IMG/VR virus record: IMGVR_UViG_3300020050_015720
Strand: one strand, 5' to 3'
Length of the DNA stretch: 33,082 nucleotides
DNA from: a virus
Lineage: Duplodnaviria > Heunggongvirae > Uroviricota > Caudoviricetes
Made by a program: the position numbers and the translations under genes. Positions 1,619 to 31,833 of the stretch are shown here, in pieces. Every line of letters starts with the position of its first letter. The stretch's first letter is position 1. Below the pieces are notes generated by a model. That model saw only the letters and a list, made by a program, of their open reading frames with translations. It was not told where the DNA came from and made no database searches.

Positions 1619-1780
1619 GGCGGGATAGCTTAGCGCCGTTGTCTGATAAAGCGGTCAATGCTTTCATAAGTATATCGGTATTAAGGCCTTAGAAAGATTC
1701 TAGACTCTATTTCTAAGAGGCAAGGTTAAAGCACCACTCTTATATGGTGGAGATCGTAGGTTCGAATCCTACTCCCGCAA
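1619..1780 (+). tRNA. trnI: tRNA-Ile(UAU) with ~88-nt structured insertion in the D-loop
   Basis: Acceptor GCGGGA 1620-25/TCCCGC 1773-78 (first pair imperfect), A73; D-stem GCTT 1628-31/AAGC 1729-32; anticodon stem CCACT/GGTGG with loop CTTATAT (TAT 1741-43); variable AGATC; T-arm GTAGG-TTCGAAT-CCTAC; CCA not encoded. Confidence 0.8.
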
Positions 1781-6263: not shown

Positions 6264-6744
6264 TTTTGATATCTCCAGAGATTTTCATGCCTCTAATCCA
6301 ATGGTGGCGATAGTACTTCCGCCTACTAAGGAAATAGAATCAAAATATTTATGAGCGCTATTCTTATACGCGCACCCTGATTCTAAACTCTATGAACTCT
6401 CTCCACTAGAGAGAAGATCATTGATAGAACAGGATTTCCTAGAAAGAGATCCCTCATTCTCTTGGGATGATTATACTGAGCTCTTAACTCTTATTGAGGA
6501 AAAGGTTCTAACAAAAGCTGAGCGTGCTCTAATGCGCTGGGAAAAAACTCTCCACGAAAGAGATGATTTCATAGCTTCTGTTCCTTATAATGAAACAACG
6601 TATGAGATGAAGGATAAGTTATTAGCAAATACACCCAAACTTTGGGATCAGTATGAGTCTATTTCAGAGAAGCTCTTGAAAGAAAGACAAGCTAAAACAC
6701 ATGGAGACATTGAAGAATCTCTAGCTGAAAAGGGAGATATATAA
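6247..6744 (+). CDS. Conserved crAss-like hypothetical protein (165 aa, with TGA 6352-54 read as Trp)
   Basis: ATG 6247 is in frame with track ORF 6421-6744; reads SKYL(W)ALFLYAHPDSKLY across the TGA. Confidence 0.8.
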
Positions 6745-6794
6745 TTTATAGGGTGGGGACTTTAGGTCTGTGGATTCATAATCCTACCACTCAC

Positions 6795-7055
6795 GGGGAT
6801 GCCTGGCTTTGATTAGGATCGGCGCATCGAAATTAGGACTCAGGTCGTCATTGACGTTAAACACTTTTAAATATAAATGACAACTCATTTGAGCCCGCAC
6901 TTTTAGTGCCAAAGAACTCTACCCGCTTTGTTCCTCAAGAGGTAGAAATTGAAGTAGTTAGTACAGTTTACGCTTAGATAGCAATATCTTAAAACCTGTA
7001 ATACTGTCCTATTTTGATGGATTCTAAAACGCGAGTTCGACTCTCGCCATCTCCA
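6795..7055 (+). ncRNA. ssrA: tmRNA (compact, ~261 nt)
   Basis: Acceptor GGGGATG/CATCTCC with G3-U70 wobble and A73; T-arm GCGAG-TTCGACT-CTCGC; TATAAATG resume motif; tag ORF 6879-6977. Confidence 0.9.
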
Positions 7056-7179
7056 AGCGAAATATCATAGATAAACTAGCGCCACACTATTATATGTGGA
7101 ATATATTACCTGGGACCTTTGGGGGCACCGCTGTAAAGTAGGGCCCCTACCCCCAGGCACTCATTTTGAGTTTTAACAC

Positions 7180-7276
7180 AGGGGGGTTTATTCGTTAGGA
7201 GACGAAAGCAAACTTCAAATTTGCGGAAGCTGGTGTCCAAAACCAGATGATACGGGTTCGAGTCCTGTCCCCCTTG
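7180..7276 (+). tRNA. trnW: tRNA-Trp with two tandem anticodon arms (UCA and CCA)
   Basis: Acceptor AGGGGGG/CCCCCTT, G73; arm 1 GCAAA-CTTCAAA-TTTGC (TCA 7215-17); arm 2 CTGGT-GTCCAAA-ACCAG (CCA 7237-39); ATGAT; T-arm ACGGG-TTCGAGT-CCTGT. Confidence 0.85.
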
Positions 7277-7506
7277 CAAAGGCCTGCCCAAGGCCCACTA
7301 TTCAAATAAGCATGATAGTAAGTGTGTCCTGTAAAAAGGAACGCCGGACTTCCCGTCCTCACGTTTAAATAACAATGGGAAAGAAATAAAAGTCTCGAAG
7401 AAACCATAGCTTAGACTATGAATACATACCTTGTGTGGGGAAAGAACACCCTAAGAGAGACGTAACAACACGACTATAATGTTACAAGGTTTGATGTCGT
7501 TGGTTT

Positions 7507-7666
7507 AGAAATATACTTTGGGAAAGTAGCCACCAAGAAAGACAAGGTGAAAGACCAAACGTCCAGGCACTAAATGCCCTCTTCTGTAATAGAGGGTTGA
7601 TGTGATAATGGCGGCGGTGGCGAGTGAAATTACAGCTCTCTGTAGGTTCGAATCCTACTATTTCTT
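7507..7666 (+). ncRNA. 160-nt tRNA-like RNA (acceptor stem plus T-arm enclosing a multibranch body)
   Basis: AGAAATA 7507-13/TATTTCT 7659-65 perfect 7 bp; T-arm 7642-58 identical to that of tRNA-Ile; internal GCCACC/GGTGGC, TACTTT/AAAGTA and CCCTCT/AGAGGG stems. Confidence 0.6.
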
Positions 7667-16351: not shown

Positions 16352-19300
16352 ATGGCAAATCCTCAATCTTCCTTAATCATTAAACAGTGGGATTCCTTTG
16401 GAGGTTCCTTCATTGATTCCGATTATTTGGCGCAGGCCTATGACGGTGGCAAACCATCTTACCTGCCAGGAGCTCTTATGAAAATCTTTTCATCTGGTTC
16501 CGACTTTTTTAAAATTAAACCCTTCCTTAGCCTTACTGGCATGGGAACAAACGGAGGTCTCGAAGTTGAAAGTGAAGTAGTTCGCTGGAGGCTTCAAGGT
16601 GCAGAGCGCAAATCAGCTCGTGTACTTGAAAATGTAGAGGCTTCAAATCTGACTCCAGGTTTGAATCAAACACCTTTCCGTGTTAAATTAGATCTTGATT
16701 ACTATCAGCATCCTGATGTTATCCAAGGTGAAGACAATGACTTCAACCTTCAGGTAATGGATAAGATTACTGATGGTACTGGAACTATCTATACTCTTCG
16801 TATTTTGACTGATGATCCAACTAAATTCTTGGATCCTAAGTATCTTTCTGCGGGTCGTGCTTTTGATAAAGTATCAACAGCCGTTGCCTCTGAAGCAAAC
16901 GGAGTATTCGGTACCCAACAGTACCCAAACATCTTTGAACTTGCTAGCCAATTAGGCGCTTTTGCTCAGAAGATCGAAGTAACCGATAAGGCTTAACTTT
17001 AGGCCCTTTATATAGAAATATATATCGAAGAAGTTTCTTAATTGCTGGAAACCCCTAAAGACTTAGGTACTTTACAAGTAACAATCCTAAGTATGAAACA
17101 ATGGGCAATCAGCAGCTAAATTATAAAATGGAACATCTACCAAAAACAAAAGGAGATTGGACTTTACTAAGAATTGTAAAGAATAAGCTAGGCAGGGCTA
17201 AACTTAGATTGCAGTGTAAATGTGGAGTTCAAAGAACAGTTGACAAATGAGATTACCTAAATCTCGGAAAAATATCTGAGAAATTAAATTTAGGTTTTTC
17301 ATGCGCAAAATGTGCACACAAACTCTACTGGGCAAACAAAGAGAGCAAAGAGCTCTATAAGCTAATTCATATGGATTACGCTCAGCAAGCAAAAAGGAGA
17401 AATATACTTTTCAATCTAACACAAGAGGAAAGTTATCAATTGTTTACATCTTCTTGCCATTATTGTGGAGTACAGCCCGCGAATATCAAAAAACATGGTA
17501 GAAACAAACAAATCTCTTTCGCGTATCAGGGAATAGATCGAGTAGATCCAAACAAAGGTTATACTCACGATAACGTTCTTCCGGCTTGTCGGCACTGTAA
17601 CTACGCGAAAAGAGAAATGACTTACCTTGAGTTTATATCTTGAGTAAGTACTGTCCATTATAATTTAGTTCAACGACTATCCCCCAAAGGGAGTAGGGCC
17701 AAGTGGTCCGAAACAGAAACCTCCTCTTCTCAGGAGATGATATAGTCTGTTCTCATGGGAAACCATGAGCCGTTTATAAATTTGCCAGTTTATAACGAGA
17801 ATAGTGTAACGAACTATTCTGAACAAAAAGTGGAGACAACAAGGCCGCCTTGGCTTTGAATTCCTTGGCACCGATCCTAATGGTTCTACCAAAACCGTAT
17901 CTAAGTTCCTTCCATATGCTGAAGCTATGATGGTTGATGAACTTTACAAATCCATGGAGTGGGCACTGGTTTACGGTGAAAAATCTACTCTTAAGGGTCC
18001 AGACGGTTACTGGCAAAAAACAGGTCCTGGTGTACGCCAACAATTGAAAGATTCTTGGATTCAGTATCTCAATGGTCCTATTACTGTAAATCTTCTTCAA
18101 GATTTCTTGTTGAACATTTTCTTTGGCCGCACTGACGAAGCAAATCGTGGAATCACAATGATAAACTACCCGTTGTCTCGTGTAATAGTAATATTGCATT
18201 AGAAAACCTTTCTATATGCTGGAAACTCTTAAAGGTTTAGTTCCTATTATAATAGGTGCGAAAGCAGAAACAATACTAAACATTAGCTATGATGAAAAAT
18301 TCTAAGGCCGAAGTAATAGACAATCAGCAGATAACTATAATCAATACATATCTAAAAATAAGATCAATCTCAGGAACAGCAAGAGAACTACGACTCCCTT
18401 ACAGGGCTGTCAATAGAGTTCTTGTTCAGTCAAAATTAGCTGGAATTAAACGAAAGCAAAAAACCAGAACTCTTCAGATTGATTATTTCAAAGAGATCAA
18501 TACGCCGGAGAAAGCCTATTTTTTAGGATTACTTCACGCAGATGGATCCATTGTAAAAAGAACCAATGCAGATAAGTTTAATATGACTATCTCCCTGCAC
18601 GAGCAGGACAAAAAGATACTACTGCGTTTTGCTCAGTGTATTAACCTAGAGCCAGAGAGAGTCACTGCAAATCCCCAACTACGAGGTAGTTTGCAATATA
18701 AAATATCCATTGGTATTCAAGAGTTTATAGAGCCTATTTTAACATTAAAATCTCCGGAGATTTTAAATAAGCTTCCAAGTAATATGTATTCGCATTTTAT
18801 TCGTGGAGTATTTGATGGTGATGGGTCTATTTACAATCATAAAAGTCACGGTGGTAAACAATATTATTACTATGCAAGCTTTATTGGTTACACATGATTA
18901 TTGAATTGAATTCAAGAGGTGTGCCCAGTTAAAGCATCAAAAATCCGAACAACAAAACATAACGGAATTTCGCGCATAGAATATTTTAGCCAAAATGATT
19001 TATTGGACTTGGAAAACTTTCTTTACAAAGACTCAACTGTGCACCTTGATCGAAAGTACTCAAAATTTTTAGATATGAAATTGAATTATAGCATCTCAAC
19101 GACTAAACGAAAGGCGTCCCAACTTAAAAAAGCGGACGATGATATAGTCTAATCTCATTAGAGATAATGAGTTAATAATATGGACGGGACAACTTGGTCA
19201 GCTACTGTTCCACAACGCACTTGTCGCTGTTGCTAATGGTTTCTTGACCGTTGATTCACACTTCGTACGTTCTGCTTCTAATCCTGGTTCTTCTACTCCT

Positions 19301-30089: not shown

Positions 30090-30551
30090 ATGACTATAAC
30101 AATAAACACAGATTGCTCTCAAGCAACCCTAACTTCCGAAATATTGCTGACATTGAATACGGCAAATACATTAACAGTTACGTATAAGGGCACATCTTAT
30201 ACCGTAACAGTACCAACAGGCATCACAAGTTTTACTCTTCTACCAGAGCATTTAGCTATGGAAGGAGTATTTTCTTCGGGTGTCTACAGTTTAAAATTCA
30301 CGAATACACTAATCTCTAGCAGTGTGCAAACAGATACTGGTTGTGCAGTTGTTCTTTGCGATTTAAAATGCACAGGTGCAACTCTAAGTTGGTACAGTGA
30401 TAAAAAAGACATTACAAAAGTTCTTTACTACGAAGCTTTAAAAGCTGTTCAAGATTGTCCTACCTGTAATTGCACTTTACTTGAGACTCTTTTTAACACT
30501 ATAACTACCGATGAGTCTATCTCCTGCACAAATTGCTGCTGCCAAATGTAA
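30090..30551 (+). CDS. Putative virion protein with Cys-rich C-terminus
   Basis: ORF track; CPTCNC and CTNCCCQM. Confidence 0.65.
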   Translation: MTITINTDCSQATLTSEILLTLNTANTLTVTYKGTSYTVTVPTGITSFTLLPEHLAMEGVFSSGVYSLKFTNTLISSSVQTDTGCAVVLCDLKCTGATLSWYSDKKDITKVLYYEALKAVQDCPTCNCTLLETLFNTITTDESISCTNCCCQM

Positions 30552-31833
30552 CTTTGTTACAAAAACCACTTCTTTAGCGCAGTGTAAAAAATACAATATT
30601 GATTGTTGCTCCAATGAAGAAGAAATGAAAGCTGCGTTCCTTCTTTATAAAGAAGCACAACTAACTAGTGATGATTGCACTATATCTGACGGTGCTGTTT
30701 GTTCTATTCAAAATTTAACACCTGTTATCAATGCTTGCACAAAACCGCCAACTTGTTCGGATTTGTTTTCTTGTACTGTAAAGAAATTTTTATCTGGCGG
30801 TGTTTACACAAAAGCTATTGAAAATAGTTTAGATGCAACTGCTTATATGTCCATAGAACTAACACCAAATTCTGTTGCTCAACCAGCTAAAGCTCGTGCG
30901 ATAGTGTATGATTCTTCCGGTGTTGTTATGGATGAGGAATTCACAACGGGGAAATATTTCGACGGTTTAATTGTGAATACAGGAGACGAATACCACCCCC
31001 ATGTTGGTATCCAATTTGGTATGGGTCCGTGGTTAGGCGCAGCAAACTCTTACATAAAATCTATACGCCTGTATCACTACAATAGTGGTGTTATTGGATT
31101 TACCGACTTAGATATTTCTCCAACAAATATATGGACTTGTCCGAGCTGCACCGCGGTAGATCCGGCCGACCTCTATTTTGATGCTCCAAATGTTCATTTA
31201 GCTGTTCAAGCTCAGATAGAGAACGCAATCAAATCTACTGACGGAGCATTAAACGCCGAGATAGAAGTGAGTAAGAGTACGACGAATCTTGGTACTCACT
31301 TGGTTTTGAGTACAAAAACTAAACATTTACCTACTTTTAAGTGGTGGGGACTGTCCACAAGTGACATTAACATACAATACTTTTGGGCTCCAGAAAACAC
31401 TGTAAAGAGTATTGGAGTAGGTTCTAATCTTTTTGCAAACACTGTTTACTCCGGAACTGGATGAGCCTATGAGAACTATTCTTTCGTAACTCCTTGTGCT
31501 ACCAGTTTATTGACTGTGAACGGAAATGCACTACCACAAGCTACAAACGCTTCAACGTTTTACTCAATCAGCTTATCTTCTCCAATAACTACAACAGTGG
31601 TCACAAACCCACCTTTAGTATTATCTGGGAGTATTCCTGATTGTTATGCTTATAATTTAGAAGCTTTAGTAGATAGCAGTGTTCCTCATACACAGCAATG
31701 GTTATCGCCTAGTAATGTGGTACTAGGAACTGCTCAAACATTAAGCCTTACAAACCCAGTACATGGCACCTATAAGTATATTGCAGCTTTCTCAGGGTCT
31801 GATTGTACTATAACGAAAAATATTACACTTTAA
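30511..31833 (+). CDS. Putative virion protein (440 aa with TGA 31462-64 read as Trp)
   Basis: Track ORFs 30511-31464 and 31510-31833 share a frame; reads VYSGTG(W)AYENYSFVTPC without another stop. Confidence 0.75.

Follow-up and report, generated by a model that had tools for sequence, protein, structure and literature searches.

The closest described natural counterparts of the tRNA gene reported here are the phage-encoded opal suppressor tRNAs(UCA) (Borges et al., bioRxiv 10.1101/2021.08.26.457843; Seki et al., PMC12636597), which share with it a phage gene, a UCA anticodon, and in-frame TGA codons at Trp positions. A second anticodon-type arm is not mentioned in the text of either source (the word "anticodon" occurs 0 times in that of Borges et al., and "variable arm" does not occur in that of Seki et al.), and, unlike the tRNAs described there, the present one is 97 nt long, has five arms, and is labeled Sec by tRNA finders. 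An engineered counterpart is also known. In the tRNAs of Mukai 2020 (PMC7590224), the V-arm is the anticodon hairpin of the wanted identity while the real anticodon reads a stop codon, with the declared aim of recruiting the synthetase via its anticodon-binding domain; a modest charging gain is described there for amber suppressors combined with a HisRS that carried an added anticodon-binding domain on a 20-aa linker. Those molecules are synthetic, are built on a 9/3 allo-tRNA chassis, and have histidine identity, whereas the tRNA analyzed here is natural, possesses a 7/5 Trp-type body, occurs in dozens of phages, and would apparently serve an unmodified host TrpRS. Mimics of anticodon arms are known from mRNA as well: in the E. 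coli thrS operator, the anticodon-binding site of the synthetase reads a hairpin by identity rules (PMC9976931). Mimics of the thrS type lie in mRNA leaders and repress translation, whereas the mimic proposed here lies inside a tRNA and would promote charging.

Genes for a large terminase, a portal protein, and a GroEL-like chaperonin identify the window (i.e., the whole stretch of 33,082 nucleotides that was analyzed) as phage DNA, and crAss-type ring proteins are encoded in a syntenic relative. A tmRNA gene is located 120 nt upstream of the tRNA gene. Relatives of a tRNA-Ile(UAU)-like element at positions 1619-1780 were sought in related loci, where nothing recognizable was found. The features of the tRNA gene, along with three window genes containing in-frame TGA codons, are collected in Table 1.

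Table 1 Coordinates of the tRNA gene, its structural elements, and the TGA-containing genes of the window
Feature	Positions	Strand	Description and basis
Whole tRNA gene	7180-7276	+	97 nt; ARAGORN, minimum-energy fold, homologues
Acceptor stem, 5' strand	7180-7186	+	Pairs with 7269-7275; sequence, fold, family helix covariation
Connector between acceptor and D stem	7187-7190	+	UUUA, 4 nt; common to subfamily, e.g., L033/L067, L101, L138, L173 (CUUA)
D arm	7191-7206	+	6-bp stem UUCGUU/GACGAA (7191-7196 with 7201-7206), 4-nt loop AGGA; ARAGORN, fold
Anticodon arm, predicted to decode	7208-7224	+	GCAAA-CUUCAAA-UUUGC, UCA at 7215-7217; sequence, ARAGORN, fold
Linker 1, between both arms	7225-7229	+	GGAAG, unpaired; fold
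Extra arm, putative pseudo-anticodon arm	7230-7246	+	CUGGU-GUCCAAA-ACCAG, CCA at 7237-7239; 5 bp, 7-nt loop; invariant U-CCA, stem covariation
Linker 2	7247-7251	+	AUGAU; resembles the 4-nt variable loop (UGAU, GUAU) of phage tRNA-Trp(CCA)
T arm	7252-7268	+	ACGGG-UUCGAGU-CCUGU; ARAGORN, fold, family alignment
Acceptor stem, 3' strand, and discriminator	7269-7276	+	Stem strand 7269-7275; G73 at 7276
HNH homing-endonuclease gene	17059-17745	+	In-frame TGA at 17248 and 17641; insertion relative to L001
LAGLIDADG homing-endonuclease gene	18289-19152	+	In-frame TGA at 18895 and 18907; insertion relative to L001
Structural-block gene	30511-31833	+	440 aa, one in-frame TGA at 31462-31464; single ORF

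An earlier, sequence-only reading of this DNA had described one real tRNA gene with a Trp-type body and two anticodon-type arms. Its coordinates and both hairpins were all correct when compared with the sequence and the minimum-energy fold, and ARAGORN, the fold, and 56 homologues agree on a single tRNA gene with two such arms. Folding of the 97 nt at minimum energy gives precisely the five-arm cloverleaf, although the z-score of -1.5 is weak by itself. The acceptor stem consists of A1-U72 (A7180-U7275), one G-U pair, and five G-C pairs; the Trp identity elements G73 and A1-U72 are both present, as the assignment of a Trp-type body had stated. No CCA is encoded at the 3' end, where the next letters are CAA. 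For the D stem, the pairing of UUCG (7191-94) with CGAA had been recognized, but the stem is 6 bp rather than 4 bp in length. Canonical tRNAs have a 2-nt connector between the acceptor and D stems. The anticodon stem and the T stem are separated by 27 nt, compared with 4 to 5 nt in phage tRNA-Trp(CCA) from the same loci. The UCA arm occupies the anticodon position, so that CCA is absent from positions 34-36 and confined to the extra arm; a 5-bp stem with the loop GUCCAAA at the variable-arm position is thus combined with a stop-reading UCA anticodon, which is the arrangement of a pseudo-anticodon V-arm. In its A1-U72 pair, G73, 7/5 body, and possession of a hairpin with a NUCCAAA loop, the molecule resembles bacterial tRNA-Trp(CCA), from which it differs by its remodeled D arm and by having UCA, rather than CCA, in the anticodon position.

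Homologues were collected by two pattern scans of IMG/VR. Scan 1 (UCA loop, UCCAAA, and T loop) gave more than 118 matches, 47 of which were ARAGORN tRNAs, and scan 2, with the UCA arm and T loop fixed and the insert left free, gave 78 matches that are unbiased with respect to the extra loop. A structural parser yielded 56 distinct Trp-type members in all. Every one of these sequences (56/56) contains U-CCA in the extra-arm loop, with a family consensus of NUCCAAN and individual loops of GUCCAAA (27 members), CUCCAAA (16), UUCCAAA (5), and a few variants, although scan 1 demanded UCCAAA and the loop statistics derived from it are biased. RNAalifold applied to a plain MAFFT alignment recovered the four canonical helices and missed the extra arm, the columns of which were misaligned; the 17-nt hairpins were subsequently aligned alone for covariation. 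When aligned in this manner, with a small bias toward pairing because the best-pairing CCA was taken where several existed, 92.8% of the extra-arm stem cells were paired versus 52.4% in shuffles, and 96 cells were altered on both sides versus 31 in shuffles. Double changes were present at every one of the five pairs, and sliding the partner strand reduced pairing to 28 to 50%. With 56 distinct homologues, an invariant U-CCA, and a covarying stem, the extra arm is evidently more than a product of chance. Rather than drifting freely, the second loop keeps its U-CCA throughout, and both arms are, as judged from these alignments, under selection. The decoding loop CUUCAAA was likewise invariant in 55 aligned homologues, but both retrieval patterns demanded it. 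The 1-72 pair is A-U in 43 members, G-U in 9, and G-C in 5; G73 is found in all 56 members of a set that had been selected for G at this position, and linker 1 ranges from 0 to 10 nt, mostly 3 to 6 nt.

A near-exact pattern, comprising the UCA stem plus UCCAAA at fixed spacing, had no match in IMG/VR, which indicates a family that is diverse rather than clonal. Positions 6700-7400 also gave no blastn match against 50,697 GenBank phage records. In bacterial and archaeal genomes, at least two Trp-type two-arm tRNAs were identified, on a small Phoenicibacter MAG contig and a Parabacteroides goldsteinii contig; the remaining matches among those listed were Sec tRNAs or chance occurrences.

The extra arm is associated with a particular type of tRNA. 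In the loop-unbiased scan, a U-CCA hairpin was present in 39 of the 40 tRNAs with a 7-bp acceptor stem and G73 and in none of the 15 Sec-type (8/5) tRNAs, whose extra arm has a long stem and a short loop. Control scans in which a CCA anticodon was combined with a CCA arm or with a UCA arm returned 45 and 59 raw matches, respectively, and no tRNAs. From the control and unbiased scans we conclude that the arm goes with the UCA anticodon, in that order, on a Trp-type body. A corresponding search for an amber-suppressor analogue (UUCUAAU as the first loop, then a UU(C/U)UGAU arm) provided 39 raw matches and no tRNAs; this was a narrow test, and other loop forms are possible. The genuine phage tRNA-Trp(CCA) genes of the same loci have CUCCAAA as their anticodon loop (13/13), and the extra arm matches these 13 loops from U33 to A38, with G often found at the position-32 equivalent (in about half of the cases). 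The frequent G at that site fits a loop that would be read by an enzyme and not by the ribosome.

The strong conservation of the extra loop shows only that something reads it, and that reader need not be TrpRS. The hairpin might instead act as a decoy or shield against a host anticodon nuclease or another defense directed at tRNA-Trp, provide a landing platform for a phage factor or a modification enzyme, or serve as an antideterminant by which SerRS is kept away from a tRNA with a long arm. Protection from anticodon nucleases has been suggested as a role of some phage tRNAs, and the A36-A37-A38 sequence that is found in both loops is the motif recognized by the i6A37 enzyme MiaA. A decoy or a general docking site would not, however, need to be restricted to tRNAs with a UCA anticodon, and the arm never occurs on CCA-anticodon tRNAs; moreover, the triplet that is conserved is the very one that TrpRS uses for identity (PMC9976931). 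We consider a function unrelated to TrpRS to be improbable, yet worth keeping in mind.

The window tRNA belongs to a subfamily (L033, L101, L138, L173, and others) that is marked by a connector of 4 nt between the acceptor and D stems, a short-loop D arm, and a linker of UAU type on the 5' side of the T stem. The D stems of the subfamily covary and are 4 to 6 bp long, with a single one shorter than 5 bp; most family members have a D stem of the ordinary 4 bp, and the 6-bp/4-nt-loop D arm is limited to the subfamily. L033, the relative closest in structure, is built like the window tRNA and has an identical extra loop (GUCCAAA) on a wholly different stem (CACAG/CUGUG). Two other members (L004 and L006) possess a 6-bp extra arm with a loop containing UUCCAAA. 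By contrast, L010, as well as L030 with its identical copy L042, encode a Trp-type tRNA(UCA) of ordinary length that lacks the extra arm. Because these loci use an armless tRNA(UCA), the extra arm appears to be dispensable for UGA suppression as such. Among the IMG/VR terminase relatives, tRNA(UCA) genes in several forms lie upstream of the terminase gene, and they are located directly downstream of the tmRNA gene where a tmRNA was found (L030/L042, as in the window). The gene site varies among close relatives; L002 retains the tmRNA, and 2.7 kb of other DNA replaces the tRNA. Neither ARAGORN nor the structural parser detected a tRNA(UCA) in the related records G001-G003, two of which are at least 90% complete, and the TerL genes of all three contain in-frame TGA.

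The label given by the standard tools raises the question of whether this is a tRNA-Sec, or else a serine-accepting class II tRNA or allo-tRNA with UCA, in either of which the CCA of the arm loop would be meaningless. ARAGORN called the gene tRNA-SeC(tca), with a shifted acceptor register, and the best Rfam match was the tRNA-Sec model (RF01852), albeit with a score of 34.7 bits that is below the gathering score of 47. The 6-bp D stem with its 4-nt loop, the long arm, and G73 recall tRNA-Sec and SerRS determinants, and it is the remodeled D arm of the subfamily that makes the Sec models score best. Both tRNA-Sec (RF01852) and the allo-tRNAs (Mukai et al. 2016, PMC5389517) share UCA, a long extra arm, and a long, tetraloop-capped D stem with the window tRNA; they differ in having 8/5, 8/4, or 9/3 bodies and a short, variable extra loop, whereas the window tRNA has a 7/5 body and a conserved 7-nt loop. 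Although pairing of C7179 with G7276 is possible in the window, 45 of 57 members have T at position -1, and the family therefore lacks an eighth acceptor pair with G73. The true 8/5 Sec tRNAs recovered in the same scan, with their long stems and short loops, lack U-CCA. Similarly, for a class II tRNA-Ser or allo-tRNA, the long arm and G73 are present, but the acceptor/T arrangement is 7/5 rather than 8/4 or 9/3, the conserved 7-nt loop of the extra arm is flanked by 5-nt unpaired linkers on both sides, and the codon context described below argues against Ser. Given the subthreshold Rfam score, the lack of an eighth acceptor pair, and the Trp codon context, tRNA-Sec was rejected, and a Sec or Ser identity is, in our estimate, very unlikely.

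The meaning of TGA was examined by aligning genes with their homologues. The TerL genes of seven relatives contain two to six in-frame TGA codons each, and the residues aligned with them are W (68), Y (24), and F (9), with no Cys and only two occurrences of Ser. The TerL of the window has no TGA, and Trp accounts for 7 of its 751 residues (<1%). Since the TGA codons of TerL align mainly with W even though Trp is rare, TGA is evidently read as Trp in this phage clade and not as Sec, Ser, or Cys. Within the window, the TGA column of the structural-block gene holds W and F in full-length homologues (440 and 442 aa), and this gene is a predicted client of the suppressor. In the HNH gene, the closest homologue has Y at the first TGA site and W (TGG) at the second; in the LAGLIDADG gene, Y aligns with the second TGA site. 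These three genes and the TerL alignments agree with the proposal, made in the sequence-only reading, that the genome needs a UGA-decoding tRNA-Trp. A search that detected the TrpRS/TyrRS family PF00579 in 14 of 14 control genomes found no member of it in five related phage records, of which three have a completeness of at least 90%. With no TrpRS in the related phages, the suppressor would have to be charged by the host enzyme.

The data are best fit by a reading in which the RNA is charged through its CCA arm and decodes through its UCA arm, one of the options raised when the sequence alone was inspected. We assign a probability of about 0.55 to the proposal that the gene encodes an opal-suppressor tRNA-Trp whose CCA pseudo-anticodon arm is recognized by the host TrpRS while its UCA arm decodes. 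In bacteria, Trp identity is determined by the anticodon bases together with the discriminator and the first base pair (PMC9976931). The C34-to-U change weakens one TrpRS identity element, with G73 and A1-U72 kept, and the variable-arm position reproduces the tRNA-Trp anticodon hairpin in full (5 bp and a 7-nt loop with U33-C-C-A-A37). The anticodon-binding domain of the host TrpRS could dock on this pseudo-anticodon arm; we infer such binding, and a resulting gain in charging, from the conserved features of the arm. On the ribosome, the UCA arm would read UGA, and probably UGG too, as Trp. Identity reading and codon reading would in this way be split between two different hairpins, and suppression would lead to expression of TGA-containing phage genes in a host with the standard code. 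Borges et al. (bioRxiv 10.1101/2021.08.26.457843) proposed that recoded phages rely on the host TrpRS. Several points count against recognition of the extra arm by TrpRS. The tip of the variable arm is far from the true anticodon site, which is the main weakness of a simple docking model; in Mukai 2020 (PMC7590224), the V-arm tip is described as distant from the CCA end, and an extra, linker-attached binding domain was needed. Some related phages, as noted above, use a tRNA(UCA) that lacks the arm, and phage tRNAs(UCA) were reported by Seki et al. (PMC12636597) to insert Trp in E. coli extract. Lastly, a long arm together with G73 also constitutes SerRS determinants.

The distance problem would be removed if the tRNA had two states, with the D stem unchanged and either hairpin able to stack under it. 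To TrpRS, the molecule would look like a normal tRNA-Trp when the CCA arm fills the anticodon position and the UCA hairpin is extruded, between positions 26 and 27; when the UCA arm takes that place instead, the molecule would decode UGA, and the CCA arm would be a long variable arm. Each hairpin does have one canonical junction, the UCA arm starting one nucleotide after the D stem and the CCA arm being followed by a linker of 4 to 5 nt (AUGAU, versus UGAU and GUAU in phage tRNA-Trp(CCA)). The unpaired linkers on either side of the extra arm are probably longer than those usual in class II tRNAs, which would also favor a two-state molecule. Tertiary stacking, however, leaves no trace in covariation, and about half of the extra loops have G as the equivalent of position 32, an unusual base in a loop that would need to resemble an anticodon loop exactly. 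An explicit form of switching, the alternative cloverleaf that the sequence-only reading had built on pairing of UUCG (7191-94) with CGGA (7224-27), exists in the window but is not conserved in the family: such D-stem re-pairing is possible in 9 of 56 members, which is the chance level (sliding 4-nt window, G-U allowed), and L033, although of the same subfamily, is unable to form it. We regard the two-state arrangement as unlikely. The fuller claim, that this is a natural bistable tRNA in which the hairpins alternate in the anticodon position, CCA for charging by TrpRS and UCA for decoding of UGA, such that identity and decoding anticodons would be uncoupled, is in our view decidedly unlikely.

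Two further suggestions about the origin and fate of the double arm did not hold up. The tandem duplication once proposed has left no sign of a recent event: stem identity averaged 4.43/10 within a tRNA and 4.57/10 between tRNAs (permutation p ∼0.8), so recent duplication and concerted evolution were rejected. Processing of the RNA into either isoacceptor is without support, as both loops are conserved within one molecule, and a splicing pathway that would act on a piece of this kind is not known to us from bacteria or phages.

A limited literature search, which is not proof of absence, found no description of a natural tRNA with a second anticodon arm for the same amino acid; the engineered analogue is known (Mukai 2020, PMC7590224), and we found no natural form described. 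For synthetases that read the anticodon, altered decoding normally damages charging, a coupling that is thought to constrain codon reassignment and code engineering. If charging of the pseudo-anticodon type proposed here is correct, these phages would possess a simple and transferable bypass, with the old anticodon retained as a side arm and the new one presented to the ribosome. The Sec label that standard tRNA finders wrongly attach to these molecules would thereby be explained, and some such tRNAs may be missed altogether. The two-arm tRNA would also offer a model from nature for building suppressor tRNAs, whether orthogonal or host-charged, for which only a weakly active engineered design has been available until now. 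For the phages themselves, the extra arm would explain how a suppressor is charged in TGA-recoded genomes that lack TrpRS, a point left open by Borges et al.

Five in-frame TGA codons in the window were treated as sense codons in this analysis, and two homing-endonuclease genes, of the HNH and LAGLIDADG types, account for four of them. In-frame TGA also occurs among the relatives: the phage records from which the related loci L001, L007 and L023 come (G001-G003; 89-100 kb; 89%, 99% and 95% complete, respectively) all carry in-frame TGA in the gene for the large terminase, TerL. When a tRNA(UCA) was sought in these three records by using ARAGORN and a structural parser, none was detected by either; their suppressor either lies on the missing sequence or has a form that is missed by current finders. 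In the unbiased scan of IMG/VR, which fixed the UCA arm and T loop and left the insert between them free, a single Trp-type long-insert tRNA(UCA) lacked the U-CCA hairpin. This gene (L191:2905-2999, + strand; G73, A1-U72) has a 28-nt insert with neither that hairpin nor a clear stem.

Features of the window accompanying the tRNA-Trp-type gene at 7180-7276
Feature	Position	Strand	Remarks
tRNA-like element	1619-1780	+	anticodon loop CUUAUAU (UAU, Ile-type)
Phage-encoded tmRNA	6795-7056	+	Rfam RF00023, 53.4 bits (gathering 47)
G+C-rich inverted repeat, CCUGGG ... CCCAGG, then T-rich run	7110-7157	+	between tmRNA and tRNA
Non-coding block, ~123 nt	7388-7510	+	92% identical to L002:6762-6883
T-arm-like hairpin, GUAGG-UUCGAAU-CCUAC	7642-7658	+	ORF-poor stretch
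HNH homing-endonuclease gene	16995-17822	+	insertion relative to L001, closest relative
LAGLIDADG homing-endonuclease gene	18140-19182	+	insertion relative to L001, closest relative

The tmRNA gene precedes the tRNA by 120 nt. In the window it was missed by ARAGORN; at the corresponding site in the relatives L002, L030 and L042 the same program found tmRNAs with long tag peptides. Because an inverted repeat and a T-rich run separate the tmRNA and tRNA genes, the two may, judging from sequence, form separate transcription units. TcatTTTG (7161-7168), located 12 nt before the tRNA 5' end, closely resembles the -7 promoter motif of Bacteroidota. For the non-coding block downstream of the tRNA, the flanking genes are ~70% identical to those of L002, versus 92% for the block itself. 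The block is a candidate for either a conserved RNA or a regulatory site; its single-sequence folding was unremarkable (z-score of -0.9).

The T-arm-like hairpin has the same sequence as the T arm of the Ile-type element (within 1716-1780), and neither a tRNA nor an Rfam family was called around it. The Rfam match in that element (30.2 bits) is limited to 1716-1780 and has no D loop. No relatives of the element were found in the related phage loci. In its minimum-energy fold, an acceptor-like stem (1620-1625 / 1773-1778) encloses a structured insert of ~90 nt. Within this insert is the tRNA-Ile(GAU) loop sequence, CUGAUAA (1643-1649). The element may be a second instance of a non-standard anticodon combined with a mimic of the standard one.
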